Assembly: GCA_050084515.1 (NCBI GenBank)
Contig: CM114271.1
Span: 10,912,001 to 10,976,000, forward strand
Length of the DNA stretch: 64,000 nucleotides
Source of the DNA: Blasia pusilla
Lineage: Eukaryota
Reading direction: 5' to 3'
Each line of letters begins with the position of its first letter. Within the stretch, counting starts at the first letter, position 1. A model generated the notes under the pieces. That model did no database searches. It was not told the origin of the DNA and was given only the letters and a program-made list of their open reading frames with translations. Shown piece after piece: positions 1 through 63,086 of this stretch. A program made the position numbers and the translations under genes.

Positions 1-3000
1 GATCGCTTCACGCACTACAAGTTAGAGCTCATCCTCGCTTCTTCCAGTTAGAACCAGGAAACATCCCGTGTCACTAAGATATGCGTTGGCAAAGGAGAAC
101 ATCAACGCGATCTGGTCATATGTGAATGGGGTGTTTCAATCCGGGACTATGTCGCGTGGGTTTTCTGCCCACAAATCTGAGCCCCAACGGTAGATTTACG
201 ATGAGGAGGTCAACTACAACCTCCTCACGTACCCCATTGATGGTCCATGGGGCATGGCCGCCTCGCAGAAGCTTACATCCCAACAATGTTAGCTTCTCCA
301 AGGCAAGCGTGGACTCTTGTGATGAGAACTTCTCCAATTCTTCCAGCAACGATGTCTGATGCAGCAAGATGGTGATTTGTGATACTCCATCCTTGTGCTT
401 CCCCGACAATGAGGGAGTGTAGACAACATTCGTGTCCCCTCCTTCAGAGAAACCGGGAGTCTCCCTTTTTTGCTTCTTGCGAGTGGGGTGCCTGCTTGTT
501 GGGATCTCTATGACATCGAAATCCACAAGATTCGGTTTGGAGGCCTCCCGTAGCCGTCCTTCTCGCCTTGATGATCGTGCATTGCATGGTTTGGGGGCCT
601 TAACCTTGGATTTCAACCCCGCATTGGACTTGTCTTTTGTCGTTACTGTTTTTGACAAAATCTCCGCCGCCTCAATTGCTTGTGCCTCGGCATCCCCTTC
701 GAAGTACTCCTCTGTCTTGAAAATGTTTGGGATGTCCTCCTAGCCAACAGCTAGCGCATTATACAAGTCTCGCATTGCTGGGTCAGTGAGCTCATTGGGG
801 TCATTGAAGTCCAACTAGATTGGTCAGTTGAGCACTTCCCAAGGACTCATCTTGTGGGCCATCTCCATGTCATACATGGAGAATCCTTCACCATCCGGAG
901 TATCTGCCCATAGCTTGAGCGCCGCCCGAAACTTCCTCCATGTTCCTGCGTTCACACAGGAGGTCAAGAATCTGAACACCATCCTCTACGCAACTCGATG
1001 GTGGGATAAAACGACAGCTTGATCTTGATGCTCTTTCTTCTTTTTCGCGAAGTCCCGTTTCTTCGGCTCGACAATCTCCTCGTCGATATCCCCCTACGCT
1101 AGAATGTGGTTCTTGAACATCGTCTTGAACCCAGGATTCTTTGTCAACTTATCTCGGATGTCATTCAACCACAACTCAAACTCCTCCCCCGATTTGAGGC
1201 TAGCCTCCTCCGGAACCGGCTGAATTCTCTGCAGGTCGGCTTGAAGGCATTCAATCATTGACTTTCCCAGCAAGCGCAAGGCATCCCATAAGGACCACTC
1301 TCATAGCCATTGGGAGATGACTGGGTCCGACACCCCCGATGAATGGTGTGCCGATTTTTTCTTTGCCTCCGTTCCCTCTAGACTGATTTTCATCAGTCAC
1401 GTGTGTGGGGATCCTCGTCCCTCTTTCGCTGCCTCTTGATTATGGCCTTCAACTCTTTGTAGAAGTCGGGCCCGAGCTTGGGGTTGAGGACAGCGATGTA
1501 CTGCTGCATCTTCTTTGCAATGTACCTGGTCGACGCTGACACCACAACTTGAATGAACTTGGCTCTCTCAGAAGCCGAAACATTCCCTCTCTGCTCTAGC
1601 TCTAGTGTCGCGCTTCTTTTCGCCGCCTGGATTTTTGACCAGTTGAGTATTGTAACAACTGCATCTTGGGAAATGAATGTGTTGGCCCACGTCTTCTTTA
1701 TTTGCGCTCCTTTTGCGAGCATCTCATCCACCAACTCCTCTCCGAGGAATCCTTTGTTTTGCGACGGGTGTGTTGTAAGAACCTTCCTCACTTGGTCACA
1801 TTCCTGGATCCAGTGATGGGTAACATTCCCTTTGGACACAAAGCTGCAAACATCAAGGAGAAGTAAGAAAATTTACAACTTGCAACTTGTCAATTTTTTA
1901 CGGGTTGGAAGTAGACGAACAAAATGACAGCTATTGCCAACCCGTCAAAGTCCCACAGGATGCTCCAAGAGCTTTCTTGGTGCAATCCGTTGGAAACGGA
2001 CGGTTTGCATCCAGGTCCATCTAGGTTGGGTTGCAACCCATTGGAGTCCATCGGGTTGCACCTCGAGTAAAGTAAATTCAAAAATTCAATCCGTCGAAAA
2101 TTGACGGGTTGCAAAGCCACCCAGACCGGGTTTTAAGTTTGCATTGGGGTTCAGGATTCTGACGATAGTGTTTTCACTTGCAACTCGTCGGAGTCCGACG
2201 GGTTGCAAGAGTTCCTTGCTTGTGCAACCTGTCGGAGTCCGACGAGTTACACAAATTGGGAACTCAGAAAGCCGAGTTTGATTGATCTTGCAAACCACTC
2301 AAACCAAGCCCTTTCCTACCTCATCTACAACCCGTTGGACTCCGACGGGTTGCAAACCACTCAAACAAGGGTGTTTCCAACCGCATATGCAACCCGTCGA
2401 AGTCTGACAAGTTGAATGTTCTTTACGGAAGGTCTGGGTCTACATGGCTTTGCAATCCGTCGGAGCCCGACGGGTTGCATAGCAAACCCAAGCAAGAATC
2501 CTTCTGTAAAGATCATGCAACCCGTCGGAGTCCGACGGGTTGCATGATCGGCCACTCAAACCACGCCTCTCCTGAATCTCCAACCCGTCGGACTCCAACG
2601 GGTCGTAGGCTTGTTCTACAGGGATGGCCACACTTGAGATTGTGCAACCCGTTGGACTCCGACTGGTTGCCAGGAAACTCAATAGAGAGCCAAAAGGAAT
2701 TGCAAATATGCCATCAAATTCTTCCTCTTGCAACTCGTCGCCTTCCGACGGGTTGCAGCTATGGTTAACGATGACTTGATTCTTGAGTCCGACGCGTTGA
2801 AACCGGTTCATTTTCAGGAAGAAAAGATTTAGGATACTTACGTGTTCATGGAGTGCATGGAAATTTCCACCGTGGCCACGTGCTTTGGGTAGGGATGGAG
2901 GACCACCGCCCTCTTGTAGAAGTGGGCCTCAAGGGAGTTTGGACGCTCCGCTGCAAACTGCGACCATCCCTTAAATCGGTGGTTGCCATCCTAGATGAAA

Positions 3001-4100
3001 AAGTACAAGTTTTGTATCTACTTATAGTGGGTTCGTGCCATTGCCTTCCGGAACTCCACGTCCCTCAACCTCCAAAACGCATCAAGACTCTCCAGGTCTT
3101 CCTCCGTTACCAAAGCCTCGGTTCCATGCTCATCATACGGTTGAACATAGAAAGGTGGGAAGCTATCAACGTATGAAGTTGTTGCCACGGACTGCTTCAA
3201 CTTGTCGATGTCTTCCTCTGATTAGATTTCTCTGACGTATTCCATCGTTCAAAGTCGGAAAAGAGGAATCCTCGAGGCATTAGGGCCATCCACCAATGCC
3301 ATCTGCTTCACCACCTGCGCAAATGTCACACTATCAGTTCAAATTTTCCAAACGACTGGCACTAATACAATGCGGAGAGAAATGTAGAATAATGCTTACC
3401 TGCAATGAAGACCTCAAGAATGGCGGCTCACCCTACTTTCAAAATTGAATCTGTCATTGCAGGTTACTCACTGTCTTACAACTTTCCTATGCTCTTCTCG
3501 ATTATCTTATGGAATTCCAAAATCACAAGACTCAACCCTCATCCCTACTGTTGCCCAATAAGATGTTACACTCAACTCCACACATCAGAAAGCATGAGAA
3601 AAGACACTTCTAGTGCATCAAAGAGTGGAAAGACTAGAAAGTATTGCAAGCTTCAAAGAGTACAAGACTCTTCGGCTTGGATCATCCCCTAAGAACTCCT
3701 TACACAACTCACCAAGACTACTGGTAAAATCAAGATACCATTTCCATCTTTCAAAACCTCCGCGACGGTTCATTACCTATAGTCTTCGCGGTCTTCACAG
3801 TCCTATCTTCTCGATCCTATCTTTGCGATCCTATCTTCGCGGAGACTCTTATCCGAATGCGGTCGCAAAGAGTCCTCCTTCGACTTTCCTTCTTTCTGCT
3901 TTCTTCCAAAACATTTGTTCTCTTTGTATTCCTCTACTTCCTACACCTTTCCGCTTTTTGTGAAGACTCTTGAATTCCTCTTCTTCTTCCTCTTCCTTCT
4001 TAGAGTTCTTAATCTTTGCTCTTAGGTCTTCGGTCTTTGTACCCTGTCTTCGCACAAAGACTACCTTCAGTCTTCTTTTGCAAAGAAGCTTTTTCCAATC
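1..4100 (-). pseudogene. Copy 1 of the MULE cargo gene (ParB/Srx-like + N6/N4-MTase-like), a diverged subfamily, running off the window start
   Basis: Exon 2 is 3314-2842 (DGNHR at 2990-2976) and exon 3 runs from 1843 off the edge (VDLLIVNLPLGL at about 214-179). GT-AG introns at 3399-3315 and 2841-1844. Peptides are colinear with copies 2 and 3. Several in-frame stops. 3400-4100 is a charged, low-complexity probable exon 1 and is poorly supported. Confidence 0.8.
1935..2805. repeat. Array of about 14 copies of the 29-bp palindrome in intron 2 of copy 1
   Basis: Repeated GCAACCCGTCGGA-N-TCCGACGGGTTGC. A perfect 19-1-19 palindrome lies at 2511-2549. Confidence 0.95.
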
Positions 4101-4720: not shown

Positions 4721-4722
4721 GC

Positions 4723-5042: not shown

Positions 5043-5049
5043 CACTGAT

Positions 5050-6370
5050 AGGAGAACATCACTTGAAATTCTTGGTGTTTGAGGAGAGAAGAGTATCCAA
5101 TACCCGTATTTGACGTAGCAAATTCCGGAAGCATTCAGGATCAGCGAGAAATGCGAGATTTTCCCAGAGTTGTTTCTCCTCACCAACCGTGATCTCGCCC
5201 TGCCCAAGGATTCCCAGCATTTGTTCACAAATTTGTGATGTTGTTGTTAACTTGATCACTCCGGGCTTTGATCCCGGAGAGTTTCTATATATCTCGGCCA
5301 CTTTCTTTGCCACATCCTCCTTGATGTGTCTTTGAATTGCACCGGTAACATGATGAATGTGGGAGCCAACATGAACTTCCAGCCTTGTATACTCGGATGT
5401 AGACCTGAAGTCAAGCACAATAAAAAATATGTATGCAGGACACGCTCCAACGCAAAAAGGGGATGTCTGATAATGAGGACATTGATGGCCTTCCGGCGGT
5501 ATGGTCGCATCGACCTCATATGGAGTTTTTGCATTCTGAGGGCGGAATTGCAAAGTATTGACTGGCCCATTGCGCTCTAGATACAGGCATGTTGGACTTC
5601 TACACTCCATGGCTCCAACATATTAGCGGCGAGAAACAATCCAAGGACCATCTGGAATTGAAGCACTAGTCCGTCGAAGCCTGCACCATCGATGACAATC
5701 AGACTTTCTGTCCATACCCTTCAAGCGTCCTCCATCTTTCTTTTGAGCAGGACCAGCAAGTGGAGGCAAATTAAGAAATGAAATTACCATCGTACGTGGG
5801 CGGAAGCTCATCCACAAGAATATGCTTGAACATTTTAAAGGCCAGAGACGAGAACAAACTATTGCCTGATACTTGCAAGAGGAACGAGTAGGTAGATAGA
5901 GGACCCGGTTGGTGTCCGACAGTTCCATTGAGGTTGACGACATCCGGAATGTCTTCAGAAAGTACAACATTGTTACGAATGTGTGAAGTTGGAGTTGATG
6001 CCGGATCTAATAAGCTCGGAGTTGCAAACATAGAGCTCGGTGCACTAGGAAATTCTCGACCATCTACTTGGGAAACAGAGGAATTCAGAGGCAAGCCGGA
6101 AACTCTATATTGACCATTTGCTAGAGGTAGGAGATTCCATACTTTATGGTATGCAATCAATGGCTGGATTTTCTCACCTATTATGTCCTCCATACCGTTC
6201 ATCCTAACATCCTTAGACACAAAGATGGTTCCAATTTGGAGAAGAAATTGAACTGAAAGAAAAATTTCATCCACTGGTATGAAAGACTCACAAGCTTGTG
6301 GTCAAACTATTTCTGATTGAGGAAGGGCCGCTAGATGATTGCCATAAGTGAGCTTCACATAATTATCCAT
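5050..6370 (-). pseudogene. MULE transposase N-terminal part (Cys/His zinc-finger DNA-binding region), truncated
   Basis: MDNYVKLT start near 6370. ECRSPTCLY...CPHY...C...HVGSHIH is colinear with 58650-59900. Frameshifts and stops present. Confidence 0.8.
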
Positions 6371-6399
6371 TCCCAAATGATTCCACCGGGTGGAGAATG

Positions 6400-6920
6400 A
6401 GAATAAGAATAAGAATGAGAATGAGAATATTTAATTTGTGGTGAATAGTGACCGTTATTCTCCTGACAAAATTTGATTAACAAGATGTTGTTTGGTAGGT
6501 GAGATTTTCTAACGAAATGGATTCAATCCTGTTGCAACATGTCGGAGTCCGACGGGTTCCAAATTTTGGGACTCAGACACGTGGATTGCAAAGCCACCTT
6601 TTGTAAGAGTTCGAGTGCAACTTGCAACCCGTTGGGTTGGTACCCCCCGCCTAAGATTAAGAAAAAGAATGAGAATGAGAATGTTTAATTTATAGTGAAT
6701 AGTGACTCAGATTCTCTTGACATAATTTGACTCACAAGATGCTGTTTGGTAGGTGAGATTGTCTAACGGAATGGATTCAATCCTGTTGGAACCTGTCAGA
6801 GTCCGATGGGTTGCAGAATTTGGGAATCAGACACGTGGGTTGCGAAGCTCGGAGTTCCATTTTCTGTTAGTGTCCCAATGCGAGTTGCAACCTGTCAGAC
6901 TCTGTTGGGTTGGTACCCCC
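6400..6920. repeat. About 255-bp tandem duplication upstream of the transposase start, each unit with GAGAAT repeats and palindromes
   Basis: 6412-6650 aligns with 6666-6920. Confidence 0.8.
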
Positions 6921-7139
6921 TTCTTGTCTGACCAATATGATTTGAGTCGAGATTGCTAGCATCAAACACGAGACGTCGCATGGATTTGCTACGGCAACCT
7001 GTTGGGGACTGTTATGGAATCCAAAGGAACCTAACCTTGCTTTCCCTTTTGCATCTCGCATTGATTTCTCTTATTCAATTAACTGTGCAAACCGTGAGTG
7101 CAGTTTTGTCGTATGTTGGGAAGTGTCCAACTTCGGGTA

Positions 7140-7720
7140 GACCTTGTAACCCGTCAGAGGGCAACGGGTTGCCTCGGAACTATGCTTTGTCGCATTGTTA
7201 CCCGAGGGAGAGAAAAGCCTGCAACCTGTCGGTATCCAATGGGTTTCCCGGGTACCTCTCCTTGTAACCCCAAGATGAGGGAAGCGTGCAACCCGTCAAC
7301 CTCCGACGGGTTGCACGGATACCTCGCCTTGGAACGCCAACATGAAGGAAGCGTGCAACCCATCGGCCTCCAACGGGTTGCGCGGGTATCTCGCCTTGTT
7401 ATCCCAAGACGAGGGAAGCGTGCAACCCCCTGGTCTCCGACGGGTTGCGCGGGTACCTCGGATTTTTATCCCAAGACGAGGGAAGCGTGCAACCCCCCGG
7501 TCTCCGACGGGTTGCGCGGGTACCTCGCGTTGTTACCCCAAGATAGGGGAGGCGTGCAACCTGTCGATCTCCGACAGATTGCCAGGGTAGCTCGGCTTGT
7601 TACCCGAGGAGGACGAATGCGTGCAACCCATGGGTCTCGGAGAAGTTTCATGGGCAACTCGCCTGCATCCCCAAGCCGCGGGAAGTGTGCAACCCATCGA
7701 AGACCGTCGGGTTGGCCGGG
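7140..7720. repeat. 67-bp tandem repeat built around the 29-bp palindrome (intergenic region of copy 2)
   Basis: Palindrome centres at 7301, 7368, 7435, 7502 and 7569, with similar linkers. Confidence 0.9.
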
Positions 7721-7806
7721 TTCCCACGTCCAAAGTTCCATAACGGTCGAAACATCGCCGTCGATACGACAGTGCGACCCAACGGTCAGCTCAACGGCTC
7801 AAAAAG

Positions 7807-8077: not shown

Positions 8078-9337
8078 TAGACTGTCGAGGAGGAAGCATT
8101 AACGGGAACCATGACAAGGAAAAAAACGCAAGCAAGCAAGGTAGGGAGCATCACTCCCAAGTCCATGAGGACTCCTGCGTCACCATCTCCAGGGCCTCGT
8201 TTGGCCAATGAGATAAGGCAACAAGAGATAGAGGAGCGGGAAAGGGAAGCAAATATGCACAGGCGGGAGCTTCTTGCAAAACATGTTTTGGAGGCGCTCG
8301 AAAAACAAAATGCCAAGGCTGAGGCATCGTAGGCCTTGAAGAAAAGAGTTGCCGACGAGAAACGTGAGAAAAAGCGTTTGGACGCGTACGTGAGGAGAGC
8401 AGAATTGGAAAAATCTCGAAGGGAAAAAGCGATTGCCATTGAAGACAGCCCTGCCCATCCAACAGAGAGTGTTGAGATCCAGGAAATATCCCCAATGAAG
8501 TCTGGGGACACCACGAATAGAAAATCGGCTGAGGAAACGGCCGAAGTTCAAGTCACGGATGATGAGGTCATGAGGACGGCAAGCGTGGAGATGGTGGACA
8601 TCTCTGAAGAAGCAGGAGAAAAATCTTCCTCGTCTTTGAGCCTGGCCGAAGAAATCGCCTTTATCGGCTCGATGAGTTTCTATTGGACTTGCCAACTGCT
8701 GTCCCAGAGCAGTTGGCGGGCCAAGACACCGACCCAATCTTTGAGCGGGTAAGAAATGTTTGAGTTATGTGAAGGTCCATGATGCAATTCATTGGCAAAA
8801 CAGTGTAGTTTATTGACTTGGTCCCCATTGTGGCAAGTTGTTAAGCAGATGGCACTGATGGAGGGCCAAAATGCCCCGAGAATTTCACTTTTCCAATTGC
8901 GGACAATGGAGTACGTCCGCGAAATTCAATCGGAGGAGGATATTGCAAAGCTGAAACAGTCAGAAGCGACAGCATCCTACGTTGATAGCTTCCCTCCGTT
9001 CTATGTTCAGCCTTACAATGAACATGGAACCCAAGCGCTGGTGACGGAAGAGGACTTGGAAGCGCTCGATACATTCTGGAGGATGAGAGATCAGGAGTTC
9101 AGAAGAGCGATTGAGGGGACGCAATGTAGCTGGATGCGGAACCTTTACTTCTTCATATGGGATGGAAACCACAATTACATGGCATGGACCCAGTTTGCAG
9201 AGGAATGCCCAAATTTATTTGAGGCGCATTTTTGCATTAAGGCAGTCGTGCTCCATCCATTTCCTCATCACATGGCAACGGTGGAAATGGCAATGATGTC
9301 ATGAATACGTAAGTTTCCTCTTCCTTAATTTTGATTG

Positions 9338-10040
9338 CTTCAACCTGTCGATGTCAAACCGGTTGCATAATTGGAAAGCTTCAACCAAACCGTCAAAGTC
9401 CAACGGGTTGCCTCATGGCCAAGCACACCAGAGAAAACTGGGATACCGAAACCAGTCCACCATCGACGGATGTAAAAATGAGTGCATGATGTATATGTTC
9501 TGCAAACCGTCGGACTCGACGAGTTGTTAAACTAGTGGTTACAAATCATCGGATGCCTTAAAGCAACTCGTCGGAGTCCGACGAGTTGCTAGAGTGTCGG
9601 CTATTTTTGGGATGTTTTTGGCCGAAAGCAACTCGTCAGACTACGACGGGTTGCATTTGCCCCCACGGGTAGGTGGTCGGAGTAGGAGAGCTTGCTTTTA
9701 GGCATCCAATTCCAACTTTACAAAAAATTGCGCAACCTGTCGGACTCCGACGAGTTGATATGTGCAGTTTTTTTCCAGAAACCAGTCTCCGAATGGAAAT
9801 CATCTTACAACCCGTTGGAGTCCAATGGGTTGTAACTAGACAATCACAAATCCAAGTGCAATCCGTCGGACTCCGATGTGTTGCACTTATCGCTAAAAAT
9901 TTGCGTGAGTGTTGCAATAAGTGTAGCAGAAAAAAAAGTGTTGCGACCCATCAGACCTCGACGGTTGCAATATTTTTCTCTGTGCTACTATTTCGACCAC
10001 TAGGTGTTGCGACCAGTCGGAGTCCAACGGGTTGCAAGAA
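9338..10040. repeat. Palindrome array in intron 2 of copy 2
   Basis: Degenerate units centred at 9515, 9576, 9641, 9745, 9820, 9871, 9956, 10022 and others. Confidence 0.9.
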
Positions 10041-12147
10041 CCTTGTAGCTTGCAATAATTCTTAGCGTGTGTTTGGATGTGGAGGATTGTATGTGAGGGG
10101 AACGTCACCCACCACTGGATCCAGGATTGCGAGAGGGTGAAAAGGGTGCTTACGATGCACCCGGCAGAGTACAAAGGGTTCTTGGGCGATGCTCTAGTAA
10201 ATGAGATGCTGGCGAAGGGGGCTCAAATTAAAAAGAAGCCTTGGGAAAATACCTTCATTTCCCAAGATGCAACCGTCATAATCCTTTGTTGGTCGAAGAT
10301 CTAGGCCGCCAAGAAGAGCGCTTCATTGGAACTGGAGCGAAGGGAGAACGTGTCTACGTCTGAACGTGCAAAGTTCATCCAGGCTGTAGTATCTGCAGCT
10401 ACAAAGTACACTGCAAGCAAGATGCAGCGCTACATTGCCATTCTGAACCCGGAACTTGGTCTGGAATTCTACAAGGAGCTCAAGGCAATAATCAAGCGCC
10501 AGCGGAAGAGAGACGAAGATCCATAGGGTCGGATCCGTGAGAAAGTGTCTCTGGACCGCGTTCACGGATTTGCACTGTCTGGAATTTTCGAGTTTAGGAG
10601 AATCCGATTGATGAAAATCAGTCTCGAGGACACAGAGGCCCAAAAGAGGGTGGCGCACCATCCTCCGAGAGTTTCTGATCTAGTGATCTCCCATTGGCTA
10701 CGTGACTAGTCATTCTGGGACGCGTTGCGGCTTCTCGAGAAGTCCATGCTTGTGGGTCTTCAAGTGGAGCTGAAGAAGATACAGCCAGTTTCGGAGGAAG
10801 CAAACCTCAAGAGTGCAAAAGATTTTGAACTATGTCTTGATGACATCCGAGACAAGCCCACGAAAAACTCAGGCTTTAGGATGATGTTCAAGAATCACAT
10901 CCTCCCTTAGGCAGACATGGATGAAGAAATTGAGGCCAAAAAAAGGGATTTTGCAAAGAAGAAGCGGGATCTTCAGGAGCAGGCGGCCGATTCATCTCGA
11001 CAAAGAGCTACCCAACGGATGGTGTACAGGTACCTCATCAATTGTAAGAATGCAGGTACCTGGCGAAAAATATCGGCAACCTGCAAATTGTGGGCTTCTC
11101 TGCCTGAGGGAGAGGCATTTTCCATGTACGACATGGAGATGGCATAGGGCATGTCCGACTGGGAGGTTGACAATTGCCCTATCTGGTTGGACTTCAACGA
11201 CCCTGAGGACATTACAGAAAAGAATCTACGCTTGGTGTATGATGCAGTGGTCGCAAGTAGGGACGACATTCCAAATTTCGTGCAGCCTGAAGATTTTTTT
11301 GAAGCAAATGCGGAGGAGCAAGCCCTCGAGAAAGCGGAGTTGGTGTCCAAGGTAGTCACCGCCAAGGACAAATCTACAACGGGTCTGAAAGCAAAGGCGA
11401 GGGGATCGAAGAATTCCGAAGCCGACTCTTCTAGAAAAGACATTGAGACCTCAAGGCGAGAGGCAGAATCATTCGGGCGAGTGGGGCGAGAGGGCCGGAC
11501 CAGGTCCTCCGCCAAGAAAACTCCAGTGGAGTCTGAGGTAACAGAGACCCCCACAAGCCAACCGCAGACTCGGGAGAAGCGAAAGCGGGAGGCGCCTGGT
11601 TTGTCCCAAGGAACAGATAAGGATGTGGAATACACTCCATCATCCTTGGGAAGACATAGAGAAACAACGACCAGGACAAATGTCCTCATTCACTTCACGA
11701 ATCTTGTGGATGAGCTGCAAAGTTTCAGTTCCTAGGAGTCGACACCCGCCATTGACAAATTGACCATGCTGGGACGAAAACTTCAACGAAACGGGCACGC
11801 TCCCTGAACGGTCCATGGGGTGGTCCAAGAGGTGGCGGTGGATCTCCTCATCGCAGATTTGCCCTCTGGGTTTCGCTTGTGGGACAAAAATTCGTCTGAC
11901 ACTGTCCCGGAATTGAATGTCCCTCTTTCCTACGACCAGATCGCGCTCTTGTTTTCTTTTGCAGACGCTTATGTGAGTGACAAGGGTTGTTTCTTGGTCT
12001 TGACTGGATGGAGCGAGGATGAGCTCTTCAACCTTCAGTGCATGAAGAGGTCGTTGAAGTGGAGGACAGCGCAATCATGGGTCATCAAGAACAAGTATCC
12101 AATCCGATCGGCGACGAGTCAAGTCCGGGTAAGTGCTCTTAATCCAA

Positions 12148-12492
12148 ATTCAACCCGTCAGGCTCCGACGGGTTGCATCTCTGCATGCAACCCGTCGGAT
12201 CCCAACAGCTTATGGCTGCGGTGTTGCAATCCGTTTGAAAGCGACGGGTTGCAAATTTACCACAAGTCTCCATTGAGTAAGTGCAACCCGTTGGAATCCG
12301 ATGGGTTGCAAGTACTTGTGCTTTTCCTTGTGTTTCTAGAGTGATGCAACCTGTCAGAAAGCAACGTGTTGCTCTTAGCCAACCATGGGTTGCTCTAAGC
12401 CAACAACCTGTCGGCCTCCGACGGGTTGCTCATGGCAAAAACAAAACAATTACACTTGTAAAACAACCCGTCAGACTCCGATAGGTTGCTCT
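12148..12492. repeat. Palindrome array in intron 3 of copy 2
   Basis: About 7 degenerate CAACCCGTCGG...CCGACGGGTTG units between GT at 12129 and AG at 12652. Confidence 0.85.
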
Positions 12493-13103
12493 ACTATTAG
12501 GACTTTAGGCCAAGTTCTTATGGGTTGGTAATCAACAGGGACTAGAATGCACTATGGACGTGTTGCTCATTGTGTCACCATATTGAACGTAGACCAGCGG
12601 TCAAGTAGCTCTTTCTTTTTGGTGACATTGTTTCCAACCTACTTATTTACAGATGGACCACTCCTTTGTTTACTATTTTGTAAGGCCCGAGCACAACTTC
12701 CAGGTGTTCTAGATCTTGGATCCAGTCGATCCATGCTCCGATGGGTATAGCTTAGATAGTTTATACAATTCCCCCCCCCTCGGGGAATTTACATGCAAGA
12801 CAGAACCCCCTTACTTGGAGGAAAGGAAAAGTCCCGTGGCTTGATGCAAACGCTCATCGAGCTCTGTTCAAGGCCGGGTGACTTGATGTTCGACTTAGTG
12901 GGCCTATCAAGGGCGAGTATTAGAGGCGCCTGGCAGAGTGGCAGGAACATTCTCTGCCTTGAGGGAAGGCAAGAACTTTATGACCTTTGCAAAGAGGCAA
13001 AGGCAGATTACGACAGGCTAGTTGGGGAATACAACTCTCCTCCAAAGCCGAGAGCCCCGGTTCCAGACCCACCATTGGTAGTGACACCATCGTCACTTCC
13101 CAC

Positions 13104-14932
13104 ATTTGCAGTTCAATTTTGCATTGAAATCCCTCACATAAGCACTTAGGGACCCAGTCAATCGCAGCCGCATGTGCTCAACTATATCCCAAACCACTTG
13201 GTGCTCTGGAGTGAATCGGTCACCAATCAAAACCTTAAACTCTTCCCAACTCAAAAGTGAACCTCCGGCCATATGTTATTTTCACTGAGTTGTCCACCAT
13301 TGTAGGGCATGATCCCTTAGGAAGGTGATTGCCACTGTCACCTTATCCTGCTTCGCTGCCCTCTACGCCTCGAAGTAGAGTTCCAATTCCGTGAGGAAAT
13401 CCTTTACCTTTTGAGAACGTCCCACTCCAATGAATGGCATGGGCAGGTTCATCTTGTAGAGCTTTTTGCCGGAACTCGAAGCTCGGTCGGACTCAAGCTC
13501 TGCAATCCGCTTGCTTTGTTGAGATATTTGCTCCGTAATCAACTTCATTAAGTCCATCATTTGGGCATAGACTGCCAGGTCACTTGAGTTTTGAGCCGAT
13601 GGTCCCACGAAAGGGTTTGCATTCGGGACCCCCTCATATCTGGCATTTAACACCTCAGGAGTCAGCATCTCTTCCACCGGCTCCTAATCCGGTATCGGTT
13701 TGTCTTTCGGTTCACGTCACTTGATTTGGCATTTCCGTGGTTCATCTCCCTTGGTCGCCATCTTCAAGCTGCCTCAATCTGATCTCCTCCTTGTTTCTTG
13801 CGTCCCTCCCCCAGCGTCTAGGCCTCGCCGCTACCTTGGGTTTCCCCCAAGCATCCGGTTGCTCCCACGACCCCAAGTTCTTGCTCACCAAGGATTAGCT
13901 CTGATACCACATGTCTTGTGCCTACTTCCCTTGAACGTCAATCTTAGAGTTGCAGAAGCGTATGTTCAATAGGACATGCTCTCATCGCCGACTTGCATCC
14001 AAACACACTCACGTTAGCTTGGTTTGGGTCAAGCGGCCTTCCAACCCACTGAGTCCTCGGCTTGGCACCTCATCAAGGTCAACCTTCCCTCACTCCTTGG
14101 TTCCCAACACAAGCAAGTCTTATGAGACTTGGGACAGACTTTCTCATTAGTCTAGACATCTAAAATGGTGTTTGCGCACCTAGCAGTCCCAACTATCAAA
14201 TGGACCTAGCATGAGCCCCCTAACCAAGACTCACCAAGTGAGTTGCGGGTTGGAGTCCAATAGGGAACTTGGAAATCCATTGGGCTTGGTTTGGGTTTCG
14301 GATCCCAACGCCAAAACTCTTGATCCATTTCGTGCCCTTGAGTCACCCCGCAGAACCCAAAATGGGGTTTGAGTCCCAAACACCCTCAAAGACCTTCCCC
14401 CTTACTAGTATTTCTAGGGATTACCAGCCTCCCCCTACCTTTGGGGAAGGGACACCCGGGGCCCTCTTTTTGGCCCTCAACCCGACTTCCTCTACAGTTG
14501 CTTTTGGCCCACATCTTAGCCTTTTCTTGATCGTTTGCCAAGATCTTTGGTGTGCTGGAACCAAGTTTGCATAAGATTTCCAACACCACCTTACTTGTCT
14601 CAAACGCATCTCATGACTAAAAGTTATGGTTGAAAGTACAGTAAAAAACTCCAAATGCTAGCAGCATCTCAAGTCCGATTCTCACCCCTTGGCCACGTCT
14701 CCTTCGAGACTCGACTTTTCTTGAGTCAGGGTTCCACATTTGGTTTTGGTTTCCTTAGTCGTGACCATAAATGCATGAAACACTCAAAATGCTCGCCTCG
14801 CTTGCGTATTGCACTCGTGTTTCCTAACTTTTCTCTTCTTGAGACCCCTCCAAAGCGCAAACCATCCTAGCGATAGACCACTCAAAATTGGATGTTATGT
14901 TTGGCACTCATTTGGTTATGAGGATCGCGACA
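13104..14932 (-). mobile_element. Chromovirus-family gypsy fragment: 5' LTR (13912-14932), tRNA-Met PBS (13898-13909), truncated gag
   Basis: TG...CA LTR similar to 45052-46053. PBS reads TGGTATCAGAGC on minus. Gag peptide QSKRIAELE...KVKDFLTELELYFEA. Confidence 0.9.

Positions 14933-24624: not shown

Positions 24625-24678
<54 letters not shown>
24625..24678. repeat. (GA)27 microsatellite
   Basis: Direct read. Confidence 0.98.
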
Positions 24679-50220: not shown

Positions 50221-52667
50221 GCGGGGGGCGGGGGCTGGTATTCTGGCAGGAGAGAGTAAGAGAGGAGAGGAAGAGAGGAAGAGAGGAGAGTCTCTCTTCA
50301 AAAAAAAGGGCCAAATCCGCCTGCTCTCTTCAAAACTTTATGACATATTTGAAATTTTTGTTTGCTTTCAAATCCATGAAATCTTTAGAAGAGAGTAGGT
50401 AGTGGTCCACATTTGGCCCTAAAAAAACCTCCTTTTTCCTTGGGGCGAAAAAAAAGTAGACATCATAAGACCACTACAAACATTTTTCCATCTCCTCATC
50501 TCGGTCAACAAAAAGCAGTGCCCTTGGTATTTTTGTTGGAGGACCACCCGGATGCCAACCCTAAGCATCTACTCCAAGGCATCTACTGCCTGAAATTTCT
50601 ACCTCATCTACTTTCGAACCTGCCTAACTAAAGCCTCTTGAGCAACATTGATGGCATAGGCTCGACCTGTCTCTTGGACATGCTTGAAGGTGAGATCTAC
50701 CTCTATATTCTTCCTATGCTTGCTTCTTCTCAATCTGGTTCGAGCCCCGCCCTCAGTTCACACCTCCACTTAGCTCCACCTACACAAATCTTCCGAAATC
50801 ACTCCTTGGATCCTTCAACTCCATAGATCTCTCCCTTGGATTCTCAAGCTTTATGACCTTCAAATGAGGTCCTCTAGGCTTCCATAAGGAATCTTCTAGC
50901 CCACAAGAGTCCAAGCATTTGAGCTCAGCCTCCATTGACCTCTTCTTAGCCCCTTATTCTTCATTTCTTGGCCCTAACAATCAGATCCACCCCTTGGTTC
51001 AAACCCTCCTCTACAACAAGCAATCAAGCACTCTATCTCCTTCATTGGATACCCCGAGACTCCCTAGTGCCTACACCATCTCCCTTGTCTCCTCTAGGCT
51101 TGAGGTCAATGGAGTGACTTGGCTGCATTATCACCTTGTACAATCTTCTTGACTTGTTCTTGGACACTCTTCTTTGGGCCTTTCTCTTGCACCACCTCCA
51201 CAAGTCCAAAAACATATTCAGAAAACTTTTACAAACACCATTATGGGTTCAAAAATCTCGTCCTTTATTACCTCCGAAGGAACCTCGAAATGTACATTGA
51301 ACCTAGTCTATGATTTCTTCACCCTTGTCATCTACAAATTTACTCCTAACTCTCCTCGGTGTGATACCAAAGGAATGTCCGGGATTCAAGTGGCTCCTCT
51401 GGCCGGTTGTAGACGGGGATCGAAAATGTTGGCTAATTTGAGAGCCTTGGCCCCCCCCTAGGTACACCATAACGGTCCCATATAACCTGTCTCGAGTCCC
51501 ACCGCCTTCCTCGGCAGTATACCTTGTACGCTCTGCAATGTGACACCCATCCAGTATCAATATCCGCTCCGTCCCGGTAATACCACTATGGCAACCGCAG
51601 GTAGAAGGAATCCAACACGCCCGAGAGAAGAAAAGAAGCCTACACCGCTTTACGAGTTGAGGGAAGGTGCCAAGGAAGAAGCCCGCCAGATCGCTCGATC
51701 CGAAAGGGTCCGATCAGGCAACCTGTCAGAATCAGACAGGTTGCCTGGAGGTGGTAAAAAGGGTCCAGTGGTCAAAAAGCGAAAAGTTGCAAGGAGGAGA
51801 AATCCGACGGGTTGCAGTGGTCATAAAGTGAAAATTGCAAGCAGGAGAAATCCAACGGGTTGCAAAGTAGAAGACCGTGGAGTACATAGACGATCACATT
51901 CGAAAAGACAAAATGATCACCAAACATTTACAAGCACCACCATCGATCGAAAAAATCTCTTGCTTTATATCATCCGAAAAAAGCTCGGAACTGTACATTT
52001 GATCTATTCTATGAAATCTTTTGCCAAATTATCAAAAAACTCCCTACTCCAAACGCTGCAGTCAAGCTGGGTCGTTTAGTTCTTTGAACTCACTCGTCAT
52101 TGTCCGAGAGCTCTTGCAAAATCACTTTCGGCCTTGCCCTCCCGATTTGGGAATCGTTGGAAGTGACGATGGAGTCACTACCAAGGGTGGCACTGGAACC
52201 GGAGCTCTCGGCTTCGGTGGAGAGTTGTATGCCCCAACGAGCCTTTCGTATTTTGCCTTTGCCTCCTTGCAAAGGTCAAGCATTCTCGCCTTCCTCGAGG
52301 CGAGAATGTTCTGCCACTCGCCAGCGCCTCGATACTCGCCCCCTGAAAGGCCCACTAAGTCGAACACCAAGTCACCCGGCTTGAGCAGAGCTCGATGAGC
52401 GTTTGCATCAGGGCTGGCGACTTTTCCCTTTCTCTTAGAAGTGGGGTACTGTCTTGCATGTAAATTCCCGGGGGGGGGAATTGTACAAACTATCTAAGAT
52501 GAACCCATCTGAGCATGGATCCACAGGATCCTGGATCTTGAACACCTGGAAATTGTGCTCGGGCTGAACGAAGCAGTACACGTAGGAGTGGTCCATCTGT
52601 AAATAGCACGAAACAATGTCAGAAACTAAAGAAGTCGCCTTGAGAATATTTTCAATAACTGACTTTG

Positions 52668-53215
52668 GATCAACCTGTCGGAGTCCGACGGGTTGTTTTG
52701 TCCCAGACCCACCCGTCGGGTTCCGACGGGTTGCAGTTGCTTTTGGGTTTTCCAAGTTGATTTTGGTTTTCGGATGCAACCCGTCGGAAGGCGACGGGTT
52801 GCTGGCCTAGAGCAGCCCATGCTCTCCTGAGAGCAACCCGTCGCTATCAGACGGGTTGCATCCAAAAACCAAAATCAACTCGGAAAACCCAAAAGCAACT
52901 GCAACCCGTCGGGTTTCAACGAGTTGCAGGTACACCGCGGTTTTCCCTGTGTATGTGGGACGGGTTGCTGGCCTAGACCAGCCCATGCTCGCCTGAGAGC
53001 AACCCGTCTGATAGCAACCCGTCGCTATTAGACGGGTTGCATCCAAAAACCAAAATCAACTGCAACCCGTCGGGTTCCGACGGGTTGTACACACCGCATG
53101 ATTTTTCCCTCAGTATGTGGGAAAGATGCAACCCGTGGGAAACCGACGGGTTGCTCTCAGCTGAGCATGGGCTGCTCTAAGCCAGCAACCCGTCGCCTTT
53201 AGACGGGTTGCTCAC
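52668..53215. repeat. Palindrome array in intron 3 of copy 3, including a higher-order inverted repeat
   Basis: About 10 units. 52728-52785 is inverted relative to 52851-52907. Confidence 0.9.
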
Positions 53216-55339
53216 GGACAAAAAAAACCCAGACTGACTCTCATTCTACACATCATTCATTCAATAATTGAAATTATTGTACAGGAATATAGCCTTACCC
53301 GAATCTGACTCGTTGCGGATCGGAGTGGGTACTCGTTTTTTATGATCCATGATTGTGCCGTCCTCCACTTTAGCAACCTCTTGACGACTTTGGAGGTTGA
53401 AGAGCTCCTCCTCGCTCCCTCGGTCCAACACCAAGAAGCAGCCCCTGTCACTCGGATAGGCGTCGCAAAGGAGAACAAAAGTGCAACTGGTCATAAGTGA
53501 GCGGCAGATTCCACTCGGTACCTCGTCCGCCATATTTTCGCCCCAAAGTCGCAACCCGAGGGGCAGATCGGCGATCAATAGATCCACCGCAACCTCTTCC
53601 ACCACTCCATTCACCGCCCGCAGCGTGCCCGTTTTGTTGGAGCTTCCTTCCCAACGTTGTCAATTTTTCGATGGCGGTTGTCGACGCTTGAGAATGAAGT
53701 CGTATTCACTCATCCCAAGAAAGAGGTGAATCGAAGGAGGACGCTTGTCCGGTCGTTGTTTGTCTGTGTCTTCCCAAGGATGATGGGTCTGTATTCTCCT
53801 TGGGACAACCGGGCACCTCTCGCTTCGCTTCTCTCTAGTATGAGGACGGCGTCTTTGTGGGGTTTCGATGACCTCGGATTCTAGTGGCGTTTTCTTCGCC
53901 GAGGACCTGGTCCGACCCTCTCTTCCCGCTCTCGTTCGACGATTCCGCCTCTGGCCTCTCATCTTCAGGCTCTCTTTGGGAAGTCTCGGCCTCTGAATTT
54001 TTCCTCCCCTCGCCTTGCCTTTGAGACCCGCTGTGGATTTGTCTTTGGCTGTCCGGACCTTGGAAGCCAACTCAATCTGCCTCGTGGCCTGCTCTTCAGC
54101 ATCTCCTCCGAAGAAGTCTTCAGTCTGGACAAAATTGGGGATGTCGTCTTGTCCCGAGGCCACTGCATCATGAAGCACTCGTAAGTCCTTATCCGCGATG
54201 TCTTCAGGGTCGTTGAAGTCGAGCCAAATGGGGCAATTCTCCACCTCCCAATCCGACATGTGCTGACCCATCTCCACGTCGTACATGGAGAATGTCTCTG
54301 CATCCGGCGGCTGGAAATTTTTCCCACGTACCTGCGTTCTTACACTGGATGAGGTACCTGAATACCATCCGTTGGGCAGCTTTTAGTCGAAAATTATCGG
54401 CCGTCTGCTCCTGTAGATCTCGCTTCTTCTTTGCTTGATCCCGTTTGTTACCCTCTACTTCTTCGTCAAGCTCTGCCTGAGGGAGGACGCAAACCTTGAA
54501 CATGGTCTTGAATCCAGGGTTCTTGGTTGGCTTGTCCCGGATGTCGTCGAGCCAAACCTCGTAATCTCCAAGAACTTTCAAGGTTTGCTTTCGGCGGAAT
54601 GGGCTCTAATCTTCTGAGCTCCGCTTGCAGACCGTCCAGCACGGACTTCCCGATTACCCACAACGCGTCCCAGAACGACCATTCGCGTAGCCAATGCGAG
54701 ATCACTGGATCGGACACCTGGAGGATGGTGTGCCGCCCTCTTCGGGCCTCGAGCCTCGAGACTGATTTTCATCGATCGTATCCTCTGAACTCGCTAATCC
54801 CGGATAACGCAAAACAATGCACGCGATCCAGCGACACTTTCTCCCCAATCCGACCATGCGGATCTTCATCCCTCTTCCGCTGACGCTTGCTAATCGCCTT
54901 GAGCTCCTTGTAGAACTCCGGACCAAGTTCGGGGTTGAGAATGCTGATGTATCGCTGCATCTTGCTCGCCGTGTATTTCGTTGCAGCAGATATAGCAGCT
55001 TGGATGAATTTGGCGTGCTCAGACGTAGATACCTTCTCCCTCCGCTTCGGCTCCAGTGCAGCGCTTTTCTTCGTGCCCGTATCTTCGACCAGCAAAGGAT
55101 GGTTACGGCTGCATCTTGAGAAATAAACTTGTTTGCCCAAGTTTTCTTCTTAATTTGAGCACCCTTTGCAAGCATCTGATTGACGAGGGCATCGCCCAAG
55201 AACCCCCTGTACTCTCCTGGGTACGTCGTAAGCACCTTCCTCACCCGATCGCAGTCCTGGATCCAATGGTGGGTAACATTCCCCTCCGATACAATCCTGC
55301 ACATCCAAACTCAACCCGTCAGGAAATTACATTGGTTCC

Positions 55340-56167
55340 TGCAACCCGTCGGACTCCGACGGGTCGTCACAGCTCTGGGTCGGATTCTAGCAACAAGCTA
55401 AATGATGCAACCCGTCGGAGTCCGACGGGTTGCATTCAGATTTGCTAATGCCAGGTAAGCAACTCGTCGGACTCCGACGGGTTGCTGGACTGCACGCTTT
55501 TTCGGATGTTTTTTTAAGATTGCAACTCGTCGGACTCTGATGACTTGAATGATTGAACATAGATTTAACAAGTTGTTGGCCCAAAGCAAACCGTCGGAGT
55601 CCGACGGGTTGCTCGATAGACCGCCTTGTGAGGTTGTTTTTTTAAGAATGCAACTCTTCGGACTCCGACAAGTTGCTCGAGTGACTGCAGGTTTAGAAGG
55701 TTTTTGCCCCAAAGCAACCCGTCGGAGTCCGACGGGTTGCTTGCCTCGAAGCTATTTTTCCCTAATCAACCCGTCGGACTCCGACGGGTTGATTTCGGCC
55801 AAAAACAGTTTCGAGGCAAGCAACCCGTCGGACTCTGACGGGTTGCTTTGGGGCAAAAACCTTCTAAACCTGTAGTCACTCGAGCAACTCATCGGAGTCC
55901 GACGAGTTGCCTTCTTAAAAAAACAACCTCACAAGGCGGCCTGTGGAGCAACCCGTCGGACTCCGACGGTTTGCTTTGGGCCAAAAACTAGTTAAATCTA
56001 TGTTCCATCAAACAAGTCGTCGGAGTCCGACGAGTGTCAATCTTAAAAAGACATTCGGAAAACCGTGCAGTCTAGCAACCCGTCGGAGTCCGACGAGTTG
56101 CTTTCTGCCTAAACAAACCTAACCCATTCATCAATCGAGCAACTCGTCGGAGTCCGACGAGTTGCAA
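55340..56167. repeat. Palindrome array (14 units) in intron 2 of copy 3, containing a 647-bp inverted repeat
   Basis: Centres at 55354, 55420, 55472, 55535, 55599, 55663, 55727, 55779, 55833, 55897, 55961, 56025, 56088 and 56152. Confidence 0.95.
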
Positions 56168-57742
56168 AAGTGTTAAAGATACTTACATGTTCATGGCATG
56201 CATTGCCATCTCCACCGTCGCCATGTGATGAGGGTATGGGTGAAGGACCACTGCCTTCACGCAGAAATGTGCCTCCAATGAGTTGGGGCGCTCCTCCGCA
56301 AACTTGGTCCACGCCATGAACCTGTGATTTCCATCCCAGATGAAGAAATGCAGATTCCTCATCCACTGAATTCCGTGCCCTCAACTTGCCTTCAAGTCCT
56401 GGTCTCGCATCCTCCGAATGTGTCGAGATTTTCCAAGTCCTCCTCGGTAACTGAGCTTGGGTTCCATGCTCGTCAAAAGGTGAACATAGAAGGGAGGAAA
56501 AGCGTCCACGAGGGATCTTTGTCGCCGCCGATTGTTTTAGCTTTGCGATGTCCTCGTCGGACTGTATCTCGCGGACGTATTCCATTGTCCTTAATCGGCA
56601 GAGTGGAATCCTCGGGCGTTGTGGCCCTCCATGAGTGCCTTCTGCTTTACCACCTGTCAGAACCGGGACAAGAGGAATAAGCTACACTAAAATCCCAATG
56701 AATTGCAATTCACATAATTAAAAAAACCCAGAACCTCTCTTACCCGCTCGAAAATGGAGTCGGTTTCTTGACCAGCTAACTTGTCTGAGACAGGGGCTGG
56801 AAAATCGACTGGGAACTCGTCAATCCAATAGAGGTCGATGTCCTCCACCGGGCTTGGAGTCGAGAATGACCGCTCTCCGGCTTCTTCCGCCATGTCCACC
56901 ATCTCCACGCTGGCGGTCCTCATGACCTCGTCGTCATCGAGTTGAACTGGTGTTGTTTCCACTATGTTGATTGTGTCCCCGGACTTCGTGGGGGACATTT
57001 CCCGCATCTCAACACTTGGGGTTGGACGGGCTAGGCTATCGTCAATGGCTATCGCTTTTTCCCGCCTCGCTTTAGCCAATTCCGCCCTCCTCACCGATGC
57101 GTCCAGACGCTTCTTTTCTCTCTTTTCGTCGGCGATCCTTTTCTTCAAGGCCTGCGACGTCTCGGCCTCTTCGTTCTGTTTATCTAGCGCCGCTTGAACA
57201 CGTCTCGCCAGAAGCACTTGGTTGTGCATCTCCGCTTCCCTTTCCCGCTCCTTGATTTCCTGCTGCCTAATTTCATTCGCCGAACGAGGCGCAGGAGAAG
57301 CTGACACAGGAGTCCTAATGGACTTGGGAGTGAAGCTCCCGGACTTGTTGGCTTGTGTTTTTTTCCTCGTCATTTTTGCCGGAAATGCCTCCGCCTATGT
57401 CCACGACGAATCCCTTGATCAGTCGCCTTGCTGATGTCGAGATGGGAGCTCGTCTCGCCTTGGTGGTTAGCTCGAATCGTCCCGATATCGCTCAGTCGAA
57501 CCGTCTCGCTCTCGTTCTGTCCTATTGACTCGCGATGTGTCGCCGCGTGAAATTCCCCTTCGTATCTGATCAGCTGCTGCGTGGGAGAGTGAGGAGTGAG
57601 GAATGAAGATCGCAAAATGAGAAACCGGAAATGAGCGACTTCTGCCCTATTTATACTTTTCTAGCCGTTGGGCTGACCGTTGGGTCCCGTTGTCCTTTCG
57701 ACGGCAACGTGCCGAATGTTACGTGGGTCCGGACGTGAAAAA

Positions 57743-58430
57743 TCGCAACCCGTCGGAGTCCAACAAGTTGCACGGCTCCGCCATCCTGGGTACGTCGCCA
57801 CGTGCGCGAGCAACCCGTCGGAGCCCGACGGGTTGAGCGCCTCCGTAGTCTTCGGAAAAGAACGAGAGGTACCCGCGCAACCCGTCGGAGACCGACATGT
57901 TGCGTGCCTCCGCCATCCTGCGAACGCCGCAAGACGCGTCGTGCGAGCAACCCGTCGGAGACCGACGGGTTGAGCGCCTCCTTCGTCTTCGGAAAACAAC
58001 GTGAGGTACCCGCGCAAGCCGTCGGAGACCGACATGTTGCGCGCCTCCGCCGTGTTTGGGACGGGAACGGGACGTATTTTGGGCAATCCGTCGGAGACTA
58101 TTGGGTTGCACCCTTCCCTTATCAAGGGTTAGGAACGATGGCTTCCCGTGCAAGTCGTCGGAGTCTGGCTAGCTGCACCACAAGGCGACGCCCTTGCGCA
58201 ACCCGTTGGACGGTGACGGGTTGCACGCCTCGCTGGGAACACACGGTTTGCACGCCTCCGGCATCTTCGAGCAAGAAGGAGTGGTATCCCAGCAAGTCGT
58301 CGGAGAGCGACGGGTTGCTCGCTTCGACAATGTTTAGCAGAAGCGTGCAACCCGTCCGATGCCGACGGGTTGCAAGCTTCGGTAAGCTTCGGGTAATTTC
58401 TGAGTTACCAGGACTCCGACGGGTTCCAAG
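57743..58430. repeat. Intergenic palindrome array of copy 3 (65-70 bp period)
   Basis: Centres at 57758, 57823, 57890, 57960, 58027, 58096 and further degenerate units. Confidence 0.9.
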
Positions 58431-58649
58431 TGATGCGCAACCCTCTGCTTCCCAAATCCGGTAACATATTGCAACACAATTGAATGTGTTACAGAATTGG
58501 ATCCATTGTGTCAGAAAATTTCCCCACCGAATTCATCTTGTCAGTAAAAATCTGTCAGGAGTATCTGTTTCCTATTCACTATAAATTAAATATTCTCATT
58601 CTCATTCTCATTCTCATTCTCAGTCTCCTCCCGTAGGAATCTTCTTGGA

Positions 58650-62674: not shown

Positions 62675-63086
62675 GGATGCAAAATGAGGTTTTAGATTGT
62701 ACTTTTATTTTTCCTCAACCTTCACTTTGAGCTTGAACTCTATTCAGCCCGGGGCAAATGATAGATTTTTTCCAGACCTTGGATGGAAAAAGTGATTGGT
62801 TCCACACTTATGATTCCACTGATTTTTCAGTTTTCTAAATTTTGTGCAATTTGCAACTCGTCGGACTCACAGGGGTTGCCAAAATATGGAAGAGGAAAAA
62901 AAAACTGTGGGATTGTTTAATAAATGAACAAAACAGTGCAAAAATATTCACACAAAAAGTTTCCTCTCTTCAACCCAACGGAAACTCTCTTAAAAAAAAA
63001 GTATCTATTTCGGTTGAAGGTAGTTTCCTCTCTCCTCTCTCCTCTCTTCCTCTCTTCCTCTCCTCTTACCGCACCTCGCGGGGGGC

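Follow-up and report, generated by a model that had tools for sequence, protein, structure and literature searches.

In this work, we analyzed a stretch of 64,000 nucleotides from Blasia pusilla (GenBank assembly GCA_050084515.1, contig CM114271.1, positions 10,912,001 to 10,976,000 of the forward strand), hereafter referred to as the window and numbered from its first letter, which harbors three diverged copies of one transposable element (self-BLAST of the 64-kb window). Each full copy consists of two divergently oriented genes (self-BLAST and tblastx, copies 2 and 3), namely gene A, which encodes a transposase, and gene B, an accessory gene located on the strand opposite to it. A long palindrome, TGCAACCCGTCGGA-N-TCCGACGGGTTGCA, is accumulated in arrays along the non-coding DNA of these copies, and its sequence is retained while the surrounding linkers are not. 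On balance, and with modest confidence, we consider these palindromes to be cis-acting DNA sites for an element-encoded protein which co-evolves with them; the binding of a protein, the identity of the binder and the effect of binding are all inferred.

The sequence-only reading that preceded this analysis described a palindrome array found in introns, intergenic and subterminal DNA, and saw none inside exons, a description which the scans of the window bear out. At three or fewer mismatches, 30 matches to the palindrome were retrieved, with 0 expected from 100 dinucleotide shuffles; a scan for half-sites (two or fewer mismatches) yielded 58 left and 51 right halves, of which 30 were paired, every spacer being exactly 1 nt. 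When up to six mismatches were allowed, 73 non-overlapping sites were recovered (0 in each of 20 shuffles), all of them at 1981-12490 or 51717-62880 and grouped in ten clusters, with 0 outside. By compartment, 51 sites correspond to large introns, 18 to the intergenic region between the divergent genes, and 4 to 3' flanks, so that all 73 are non-coding. Within the window, both the depletion from exons and the confinement to the element family hold: comparison of site positions with block coordinates gave 0 both for the exon blocks, which total 11,393 nt, and for 38,400 nt of other window DNA (13201-51600, including a Ty3/gypsy element). The arrays constitute about 36% of the exon-plus-array sequence, giving a chance of about 4e-5 that ten independent clusters would all avoid exons; the cluster windows were set after the hits were seen, and splice sites and conservation served independently to delimit the introns. 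The palindrome itself stands as described, its conserved length being 27 bp rather than the 29 bp first proposed, as the information at its two ends falls to 0.5 and 0.4 bits. It is free of stop codons in all six frames, and the arrays consequently yield long spurious open reading frames (ORFs), a practical warning for gene annotation. One such spurious ORF comprises 237 aa at 7098-7811 (+) and displays the shifting pseudo-repeats CNPS.SDGL, ATRRSPTGC and QPVGLRRVA.

Regarding the distribution of the clusters, intron A of gene B carries an array in every copy. In copy 1 this intron spans 998 nt (1844-2841 (-), GTAAGT...TTTGCAG) and contains 12 sites that occupy 35% of its length, and the range originally reported, 1935-2805, falls inside it; in copy 2 it harbors 6 sites (9309-10084 (+)), and in copy 3, 13 sites (55297-56186 (-)). 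Intron B of the same gene holds 5 sites in copy 2 (12129-12652 (+)) and 9 in copy 3 (52597-53298 (-)). The transposase intron of copy 3 (60646-61186 (+), GTGAGT...TTGCAG) contains 6 sites in a 35-bp tandem unit. Between the divergent genes A and B, 10 sites in a 67-bp tandem unit are found in copy 2 (6533..7720), and 8 sites in a 137-bp unit in copy 3 (57744..58428). The flanks of copy 3 carry the remaining ones, with 3 degenerate sites or half-sites in a 48-bp tandem on the left, 3' of gene B (51717..51864), and one degenerate site on the right, 3' of gene A (62852..62880).

The palindromes make up 22-42% of the array-bearing introns, and conserved canonical GT...AG boundaries enclose every intronic array in every copy. 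The blocks beside the arrays are coding, as gene B mismatches between copies concentrate in one codon phase (0.39-0.59, vs 0.10-0.18 in the remaining phases); this periodicity is weaker in gene A than in gene B. For the transposase intron, the junction agrees with a spliced homologue from Calypogeia fissa (P0008), in which '...QWGNFIRL' is directly joined to '...GHSGAESVHAAMR', and the window reads '...NTSGAESVHSSWR' just past the predicted acceptor. This comparative evidence shows the exon/intron setting of the arrays, the introns being predicted ones. Intron 1 of gene B, with a length of about 56 nt (about 8750-8806 (+) in copy 2), holds 0 sites, indicating that an array is not present in every intron and that the arrays may just build up wherever they are tolerated; the purpose of placing sites, which the sequence-only reading assigned to the introns, is a conjecture. 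Inverted repeats were also observed within these introns: the array of copy 3 intron A forms a 303-nt inverted repeat (55457-55759 and 55801-56103) with 92% complementarity and 41 nt between arms, so that a transcript across it would form long double-stranded RNA, and smaller inverted repeats of 81-102 nt occur in copy 3 intron B.

The comparison of motif and linker, proposed together with the original description, showed that the motif is retained while the surrounding neutral DNA is randomised. Mean information per position was 1.33 bits in the motif and 0.08 bits in the 20-nt flanks, and between clusters the motif identity was 0.744 and the flank identity 0.297 (0.291 for random 40-mers); since the sites were chosen by their likeness to the consensus, ascertainment raises the motif values and leaves those of the flanks unaffected. 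Within arrays, the claim that linkers vary is correct for three old arrays, those of intron A in copies 1 and 2 and of intron B in copy 2, with best-match flank identities of 0.35-0.44, and does not apply to five younger tandem-duplicated arrays, where flanks are 0.61-0.79 identical. Likewise, linkers were said to be unalignable between copies, which is accurate for the orthologous arrays of copy 1 versus copies 2 and 3 (0.34-0.36; controls 0.35-0.41), and not for copies 2 versus 3, where modest homology persists (0.46-0.57). Given that neutral sites are 39-59% diverged between copies, 28 bases without constraint should have changed far more than is observed; what preserves the motif is therefore selection, or a process confined to the motif itself. 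The CpG observed/expected ratio was 1.22 in the motif, 0.84 in linkers, 0.79 in exons and 0.64 in other DNA, values that are not decisive, and CpG transitions represent 60 of the 288 motif mismatches.

Relatives of the element carry other palindromes. The transposase exon retrieved 9 homologues with 43-47% identity, 2 of them from the liverwort Calypogeia fissa and the others metagenomic, none with a Pfam domain. A protein-based, and hence motif-blind, scan of metagenome contigs returned three loci (L001, L002 and L003), two of which (L001 and L002, with about 45% transposase identity) extend beyond the 'QWGN-IR' exon; both display a palindrome array in the orthologous transposase intron. The intron of L001 contains a 26-bp palindrome 3 times, perfect or nearly so, and that of L002 contains 6 copies of a 10+10-bp palindrome with a spacer of 6-7 bases. 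The same intron thus bears an array in all three lineages (6, 3 and 6 sites in copy 3, L001 and L002), with sequences that are all different: no palindrome type was found in the other lineages, and the window-type motif was not found in L001-L003. These results indicate that the array architecture is old and the palindrome sequence lineage-specific, which is expected under co-evolution of site and binder and for which independent colonisation offers a poor explanation. For the two relatives, the check proposed in the sequence-only reading comes out in its favor, diverged relatives carrying diverged palindromes. Other non-coding tandem arrays, not obviously palindromic, were observed in L002 (1298-1584, 60-66-bp units) and L003 (5-119, 42-bp units).

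According to the mechanism we propose, the palindromes would be recognised by a sequence-specific protein, probably a dimer, encoded by the Mutator-superfamily element. The favoured binder would be the gene B protein, with the N-terminal DNA-binding domain of the transposase as the alternative. The sites would multiply by tandem duplication wherever coding stays intact; each gene would offer its large introns and its 3' flank, and the two would share the divergent promoter region. Dense binding would mark the element as 'self' for modification, de-silencing or regulation. Protein and site would co-evolve, and each subfamily would in consequence possess a palindrome of its own.

One rival explanation, which we judge unlikely, considers that the arrays act as nucleic-acid hairpins, either as intronic RNA stem-loops that control splicing or retention or feed small RNAs, or as DNA cruciforms. 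Single sites are predicted to fold very stably as RNA (-25 to -30 kcal/mol, z -6 to -8.7), the predicted values for the palindromes of the relatives being -17 (L001 type) and -12.8 kcal/mol (L002 type); the 51 intronic sites, the 92% complementary inverted repeat of copy 3 intron A, and the conservation across lineages of palindromy rather than sequence are also in agreement with it. Furthermore, the two-fold symmetry of the palindrome is itself maintained, as symmetric double changes are about twice as frequent as expected (29 against 14.0 +/- 3.3 in shuffles), an excess dominated by the repeats of one array (7 + 4 of the 29, in copy 3 intron A) and one which hairpin-templated repair would likewise produce. 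However, G-U-compatible mismatches on the transcribed strand are matched by A-C mismatches (33 vs 32), 22 of the 73 sites are intergenic or 3'-flanking, and Rfam covariance models at the gathering score gave 0 matches over both strands of the 64 kb; an RNA role is disfavoured by this lack of wobble asymmetry, the sites outside introns and the missing Rfam match. In addition, pairing alone should let the arms drift, yet their sequence is fixed across copies with 39-59% neutral divergence. The RNA hairpin, which the sequence-only reading had offered as an alternative to a binding site, is therefore not supported. Conversely, the sites between the divergent genes and in the 3' flanks fit recognition at the DNA level, and the maintained symmetry and the mismatch pattern, together with these non-intronic sites and the Rfam result, favour, without proving it, a binder of two-fold symmetry that recognises the DNA duplex.

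The palindromes could also be functionless by-products, expanding by slippage, unequal exchange and gene conversion where coding constraint is absent, with concerted evolution homogenising the units. We regard this as rather unlikely, even if the arrays are tandem with differing periods (35, 48, 64/128, 67 and 137 bp), several are young, and all copies in the window are decaying pseudogenes. Concerted evolution would homogenise whole units, yet the motif alone is common to the arrays; the old arrays keep the motif with linkers at the control level; and the same intron is occupied by palindrome arrays in 3/3 lineages despite about 45% protein identity. Finally, a short and palindromic unit dispersed in many copies with unrelated flanks resembles an independent miniature mobile element, of the type of miniature inverted-repeat transposable elements or repetitive extragenic palindromes, colonising the non-coding DNA of its host element. 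This explanation is very unlikely, as there are 0 sites in the 38.4 kb of other window DNA, which include other repeats and Ty3/gypsy; target-site duplications were not noticed around the units, the window-type motif is absent from L001-L003, and the same intron would have to have received a different palindrome in each relative.

For the cis-acting sites that we favour, gene B constitutes the principal candidate for the binder. Its last exon (in copy 2, 12760..13149 (+)) returned PF01555 as the sole Pfam match (E=0.13), and the top match of a PDB profile search was M.RsrI, located at motif I (E=0.7). Among the tblastn matches to phages that were listed (25 rows from 154 matching records), 24 fall under annotated DNA methylase genes and 1 is unannotated. 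An hhalign comparison with four confirmed PF01555 phage enzymes gave a probability of 95.8% over 73 columns, a statistic inflated by the choice of templates, which were picked by their BLAST similarity to the query. PF01555 had been named by inspection of the gene B sequence before these searches; the evidence for it always lies at the motif X-I end, and no score reached the curated cut-off. Taken together, these matches point consistently to a putative PF01555-type, beta-class N6/N4 DNA methyltransferase-like module at the end of gene B. At the other end, a ParB-like domain may lie at the N-terminus: copies 1 and 3 share the motif DGNHR (tblastn alignment), the Atlas neighbours of the N-terminal exon (0.91-0.94) include ParB_N (11% of cluster members), DUF3723 (31%) and DUF6551 (98%), and profile searches gave sub-threshold hints of DUF1015 (E=0.098) and DGQHR (E=0.18), all of them families that we take to form one ParB-like clan. 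The parS-like site suggested in the sequence-only reading thus gains indirect support from the PF01555-type module and from algal precedents discussed below, the ParB-like start contributing weak hints. Searches of the N-terminal exon with PADLOC found no match, and the exon after intron A gave Atlas scores of 0.86 or less, with low recognition, and was uninformative.

Pfam scans of the gene B exons did not return a VANC-type domain, and all matches were sub-threshold (FancD2, Glutaminase, Phage_GPO, FapA, DUF1015 and PF01555). Judging from these domain searches, gene B falls outside the VANC family proper, and it probably, though not certainly, belongs to the ParB/methyltransferase accessory class. 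A central GANTC, as a site for methylases of the CcrM/HinfI type, was considered and is not put forward, being present in only 33 of the 73 sites (13/13 in copy 3 intron A, 0/6 in the transposase intron, and 2/10 and 1/8 of the intergenic sites of copies 2 and 3).

A more specific and quite improbable version is that gene B is a ParB-domain protein derived from a beta-class amino-methyltransferase, which would load onto the CpG-rich palindromes and write N4-methylcytosine (4mC) or N6-methyladenine or, if catalytically dead, occupy the sites, thereby shielding regulatory DNA from host silencing by 5-methylcytosine. If true, the element would possess a self-recognising epigenetic 'immunity' module, with specificity that shifts through co-evolution of protein and palindrome. 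In liverworts, host beta-class 4mC methyltransferases are described to methylate CG sites in sperm (preprint 10.1101/2021.02.12.428880); these host enzymes could descend from transposon accessory genes of the gene B kind.

Several points weigh against the cis-acting-site reading, in addition to the dominance of one array and the effect of repair in the case of the symmetric changes, and to the choice of the hhalign templates. The young tandem duplications, with flank identities of 0.61-0.79, imply that part of the likeness among motifs is recent expansion and not selection, and the relatives compared are two, with introns delimited by comparison. In gene B, the putative motif IV reads DLP[L/S], not DPPY, its alignment comprises only 11 columns (DLPL vs DPPF, probability 0.8%) and the PDB matches are at chance level; given this degeneracy and weak alignment, the protein may be catalytically inactive. 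The ParB-like N-terminal domain is suggested by sub-threshold hints alone: a PDB profile search of that exon gave only chance matches (dihydrodipicolinate reductase and SET), tblastn against phages gave 1 chance match, and a single-sequence AlphaFold2 (AF2) model was unusable (predicted local distance difference test, pLDDT, 42). Homologues of gene B were not found with a copy 3 exon at near lengths, where the ORF is frameshifted, nor with a copy 1 exon at longer lengths. Moreover, all three gene B copies of the window are broken, by stops in copy 1 and by frameshifts in copies 2 and 3, so that the window displays no working system. Four in-frame stops were observed in 156 aligned residues of copy 1 (2850-3317 (-)), opposite R, Q, W and W of copy 2, as would be expected if a silenced copy decayed by C-to-T/G-to-A changes.

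Gene A is a Mutator/IS256-type DDE transposase. Residues D115 and D164 are invariant in 10/10 aligned sequences, and an SD-FH motif is found in the conserved core. The AF2 model obtained with the 10-sequence alignment (pLDDT 64) displays an RNase H-like, beta-beta-beta-alpha-beta-alpha-beta topology, and its top Foldseek matches were chains of the IS256-family transposase ISCth4 (E=5.9e-4, probability 1.00, template modelling score only 0.21-0.27), followed by integrases and Hermes. Transposases of the Mutator superfamily possess a C-terminal SWIM zinc finger, and a SWIM-like CxC...CxH motif (CSC...PCKH) is located at 62500-62575 (Pfam SWIM, E=0.028, 14.4 bits, under the 19.6-bit cut-off). The Pfam MULE transposase domain was not found in the 458-aa ORF, for which no family was returned at E<=0.1, and no family was consistent across the 10 members of the gene A family at E<=10. 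The IS256 family is related to the eukaryotic transposases of Mutator-like elements (MULEs) (PMC7780238).

With respect to the layout of the window, copy 1 (1..3318 (-)) is truncated by the window start and includes part of gene B only, as assigned by its self-BLAST collinearity with copies 2 and 3 and by tblastn. Copies 2 (5102-13149) and 3 (about 51700-62900), both delimited by self-BLAST, are collinear and mutually inverted, with nucleotide identities of 67-84%. In copy 2, the 5' part of gene A is found at 5102..6532 (-) (tblastx), the remainder of the gene having been lost, and the frameshifted gene B at 8088..13149 (+), delimited by tblastx, codon periodicity and splice signals. Copy 3 comprises a frameshifted gene B (52122..57396 (-)) and gene A (58572..62730 (+)), assigned by homologues, alignment and the ISCth4 fold match. 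Between both copies, gene A is 84% identical (5102-6532 vs 58491-59903) and gene B about 75% (8088-12133 vs 53294-57396), a gap that suggests a mosaic or recombinant history of the element halves.

Exactly at the truncation point of the copy 2 transposase gene lies a 311-bp repeat with 91.6% identity (4723-5033 vs 36283-36593). The only candidate for the element termini is a GA-rich sequence that recurs as a perfect inverted copy of 27-30 bp on the other side of copy 3 (50264-50290 and near 63.04-63.06 kb) and nowhere else in the window; the outermost palindrome sites of copy 3 lie about 1.4 kb and 0.2 kb further inside. Elements of the Mutator superfamily display terminal inverted repeats and a 9-11-bp target-site duplication; none of the latter was seen at the GA-rich pair. 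Other features of the window include a Ty3/gypsy retrotransposon at 40049-47430 (-), with gag, zinc knuckle and aspartyl protease on the ORF 42908-44866, and diverged Ty3/gypsy fragments at 13113-14933 and 17737-18729, one of which adjoins the 3' end of copy 2 gene B. A large inverted duplication with 72-78% identity is also present (26881-28982 vs 30469-32592, and 29398-30472 vs 33977-35102), and the GC skew switches from +0.32 to -0.36 across it (26881-35102). Finally, two microsatellites were identified, (GA)30 at 24625-24685 and a perfect (GT)89 at 24803-24981.

Transposons with their own sequence-specific regulator and arrays of target sites represent a recently recognised form of escape from silencing that spares the host. 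In the portions of the published work considered here, this combination is demonstrated experimentally for the VANDAL/VANC system of Arabidopsis only, the binding of arrays in algal elements being a proposal. The family described here constitutes a compact test case, having a long and distinctive palindrome and two candidate binders, with natural controls for specificity in the form of three lineages with three palindromes in one orthologous intron. With it, the phenomenon reaches a lineage for which liverwort sequences are the only named relatives, and amino-methyltransferases carried by transposons may be connected to those of the host in bryophytes. Bryophyte MULEs with palindrome arrays or with ParB or methylase genes were not found in the literature searched.

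The closest parallel is the MULE VANDAL21 (Hiun). According to the pertinent passages of Hosaka et al. (2017, PMC5735166), the VANC21 protein binds a 9-bp motif, YAGTATTAY, found as tandem repeats in the introns of VANB and VANC and in front of VANA; exons lack it, it occurs rarely elsewhere, and it varies between subfamilies. A further source on this anti-silencing system is Sasaki et al. (2023, PMC10398659). Both are Mutator-superfamily elements with accessory genes, in which a short, subfamily-specific motif is tandemly accumulated in accessory-gene introns and upstream of the transposase, leaving exons free and being rare outside the family. On the other hand, the VANC motif comprises 9 bp in one orientation and that of the window is a 27-29-bp palindrome; VANC binding and hypomethylation were shown by experiment, and the window family is known from sequence alone; gene B lacks a VANC-type Pfam domain and ends in a PF01555-like exon; and the window element bears an additional array inside the intron of its own transposase gene.

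Giant DNA transposons of algae provide a second parallel, as told in the passages on accessory genes of two reports, with genes that carry a PF01555 methylase and/or a ParB-like domain (10.1101/2025.02.11.637652; PMC12477816). In Bostrychia, Plavaka elements, with the accessory genes PAG2 and PAG3, possess 'tandem arrays of inverted repeats' beside a ParB-like gene across families, the authors propose that this protein binds and modifies its own transposon, and Mutator elements of Chondrus carry homologous accessory genes (10.1101/2025.02.11.637652); in Ectocarpus, Sola1-1_Ec32 encodes a protein with ParB-like and N4C/N6A methyltransferase domains opposite the transposase (PMC12477816). The window family resembles these elements in the putative PF01555-type module of its accessory protein, in the location of gene B opposite the transposase strand, as in Sola1-1_Ec32, and, as in Plavaka, in the inverted-repeat arrays inside an element whose accessory gene stands beside the transposase. 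It differs from them in host and element type, theirs being EnSpm/Plavaka or Sola1 elements of red and brown algae, and the only named relatives of the window transposase coming from a liverwort; in gene B, of which the ParB-like part is a candidate and motif IV, in the methyltransferase-like part, is apparently degenerate; and in its arrays, which lie inside the introns of both genes as well as beside genes. For the algal elements, those passages make no mention of an orthologous intron whose palindrome changes with the lineage.

Other systems display a more partial resemblance. In En/Spm (CACTA) elements, subterminal repeats are bound by TnpA, an element-encoded regulator that counteracts methylation; a related preprint is 10.64898/2026.08.24.746577. 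As in the window, many copies of a short motif are located in non-coding element DNA, the regulator of En/Spm being element-encoded and the binder in the window presumably so; unlike the window arrays, TnpA sites are concentrated at the termini and not in internal introns, and the superfamily is a different one. Bacterial ParB-parS systems possess palindromic parS sites of 16 bp, often clustered, and a ParA ATPase partner. They share with the window family the palindromic, clustered sites and, possibly, a ParB-type N-terminal domain, for which gene B is a candidate, and differ in site length (16 bp vs 27-29 bp) and in the eukaryotic, intron-borne setting of the window sites. The window family combines a Mutator-type transposase, a methyltransferase-like accessory gene on the opposite strand, and inverted-repeat arrays in introns, and since these combined features match the VANDAL and algal precedents, it joins a known type of system.

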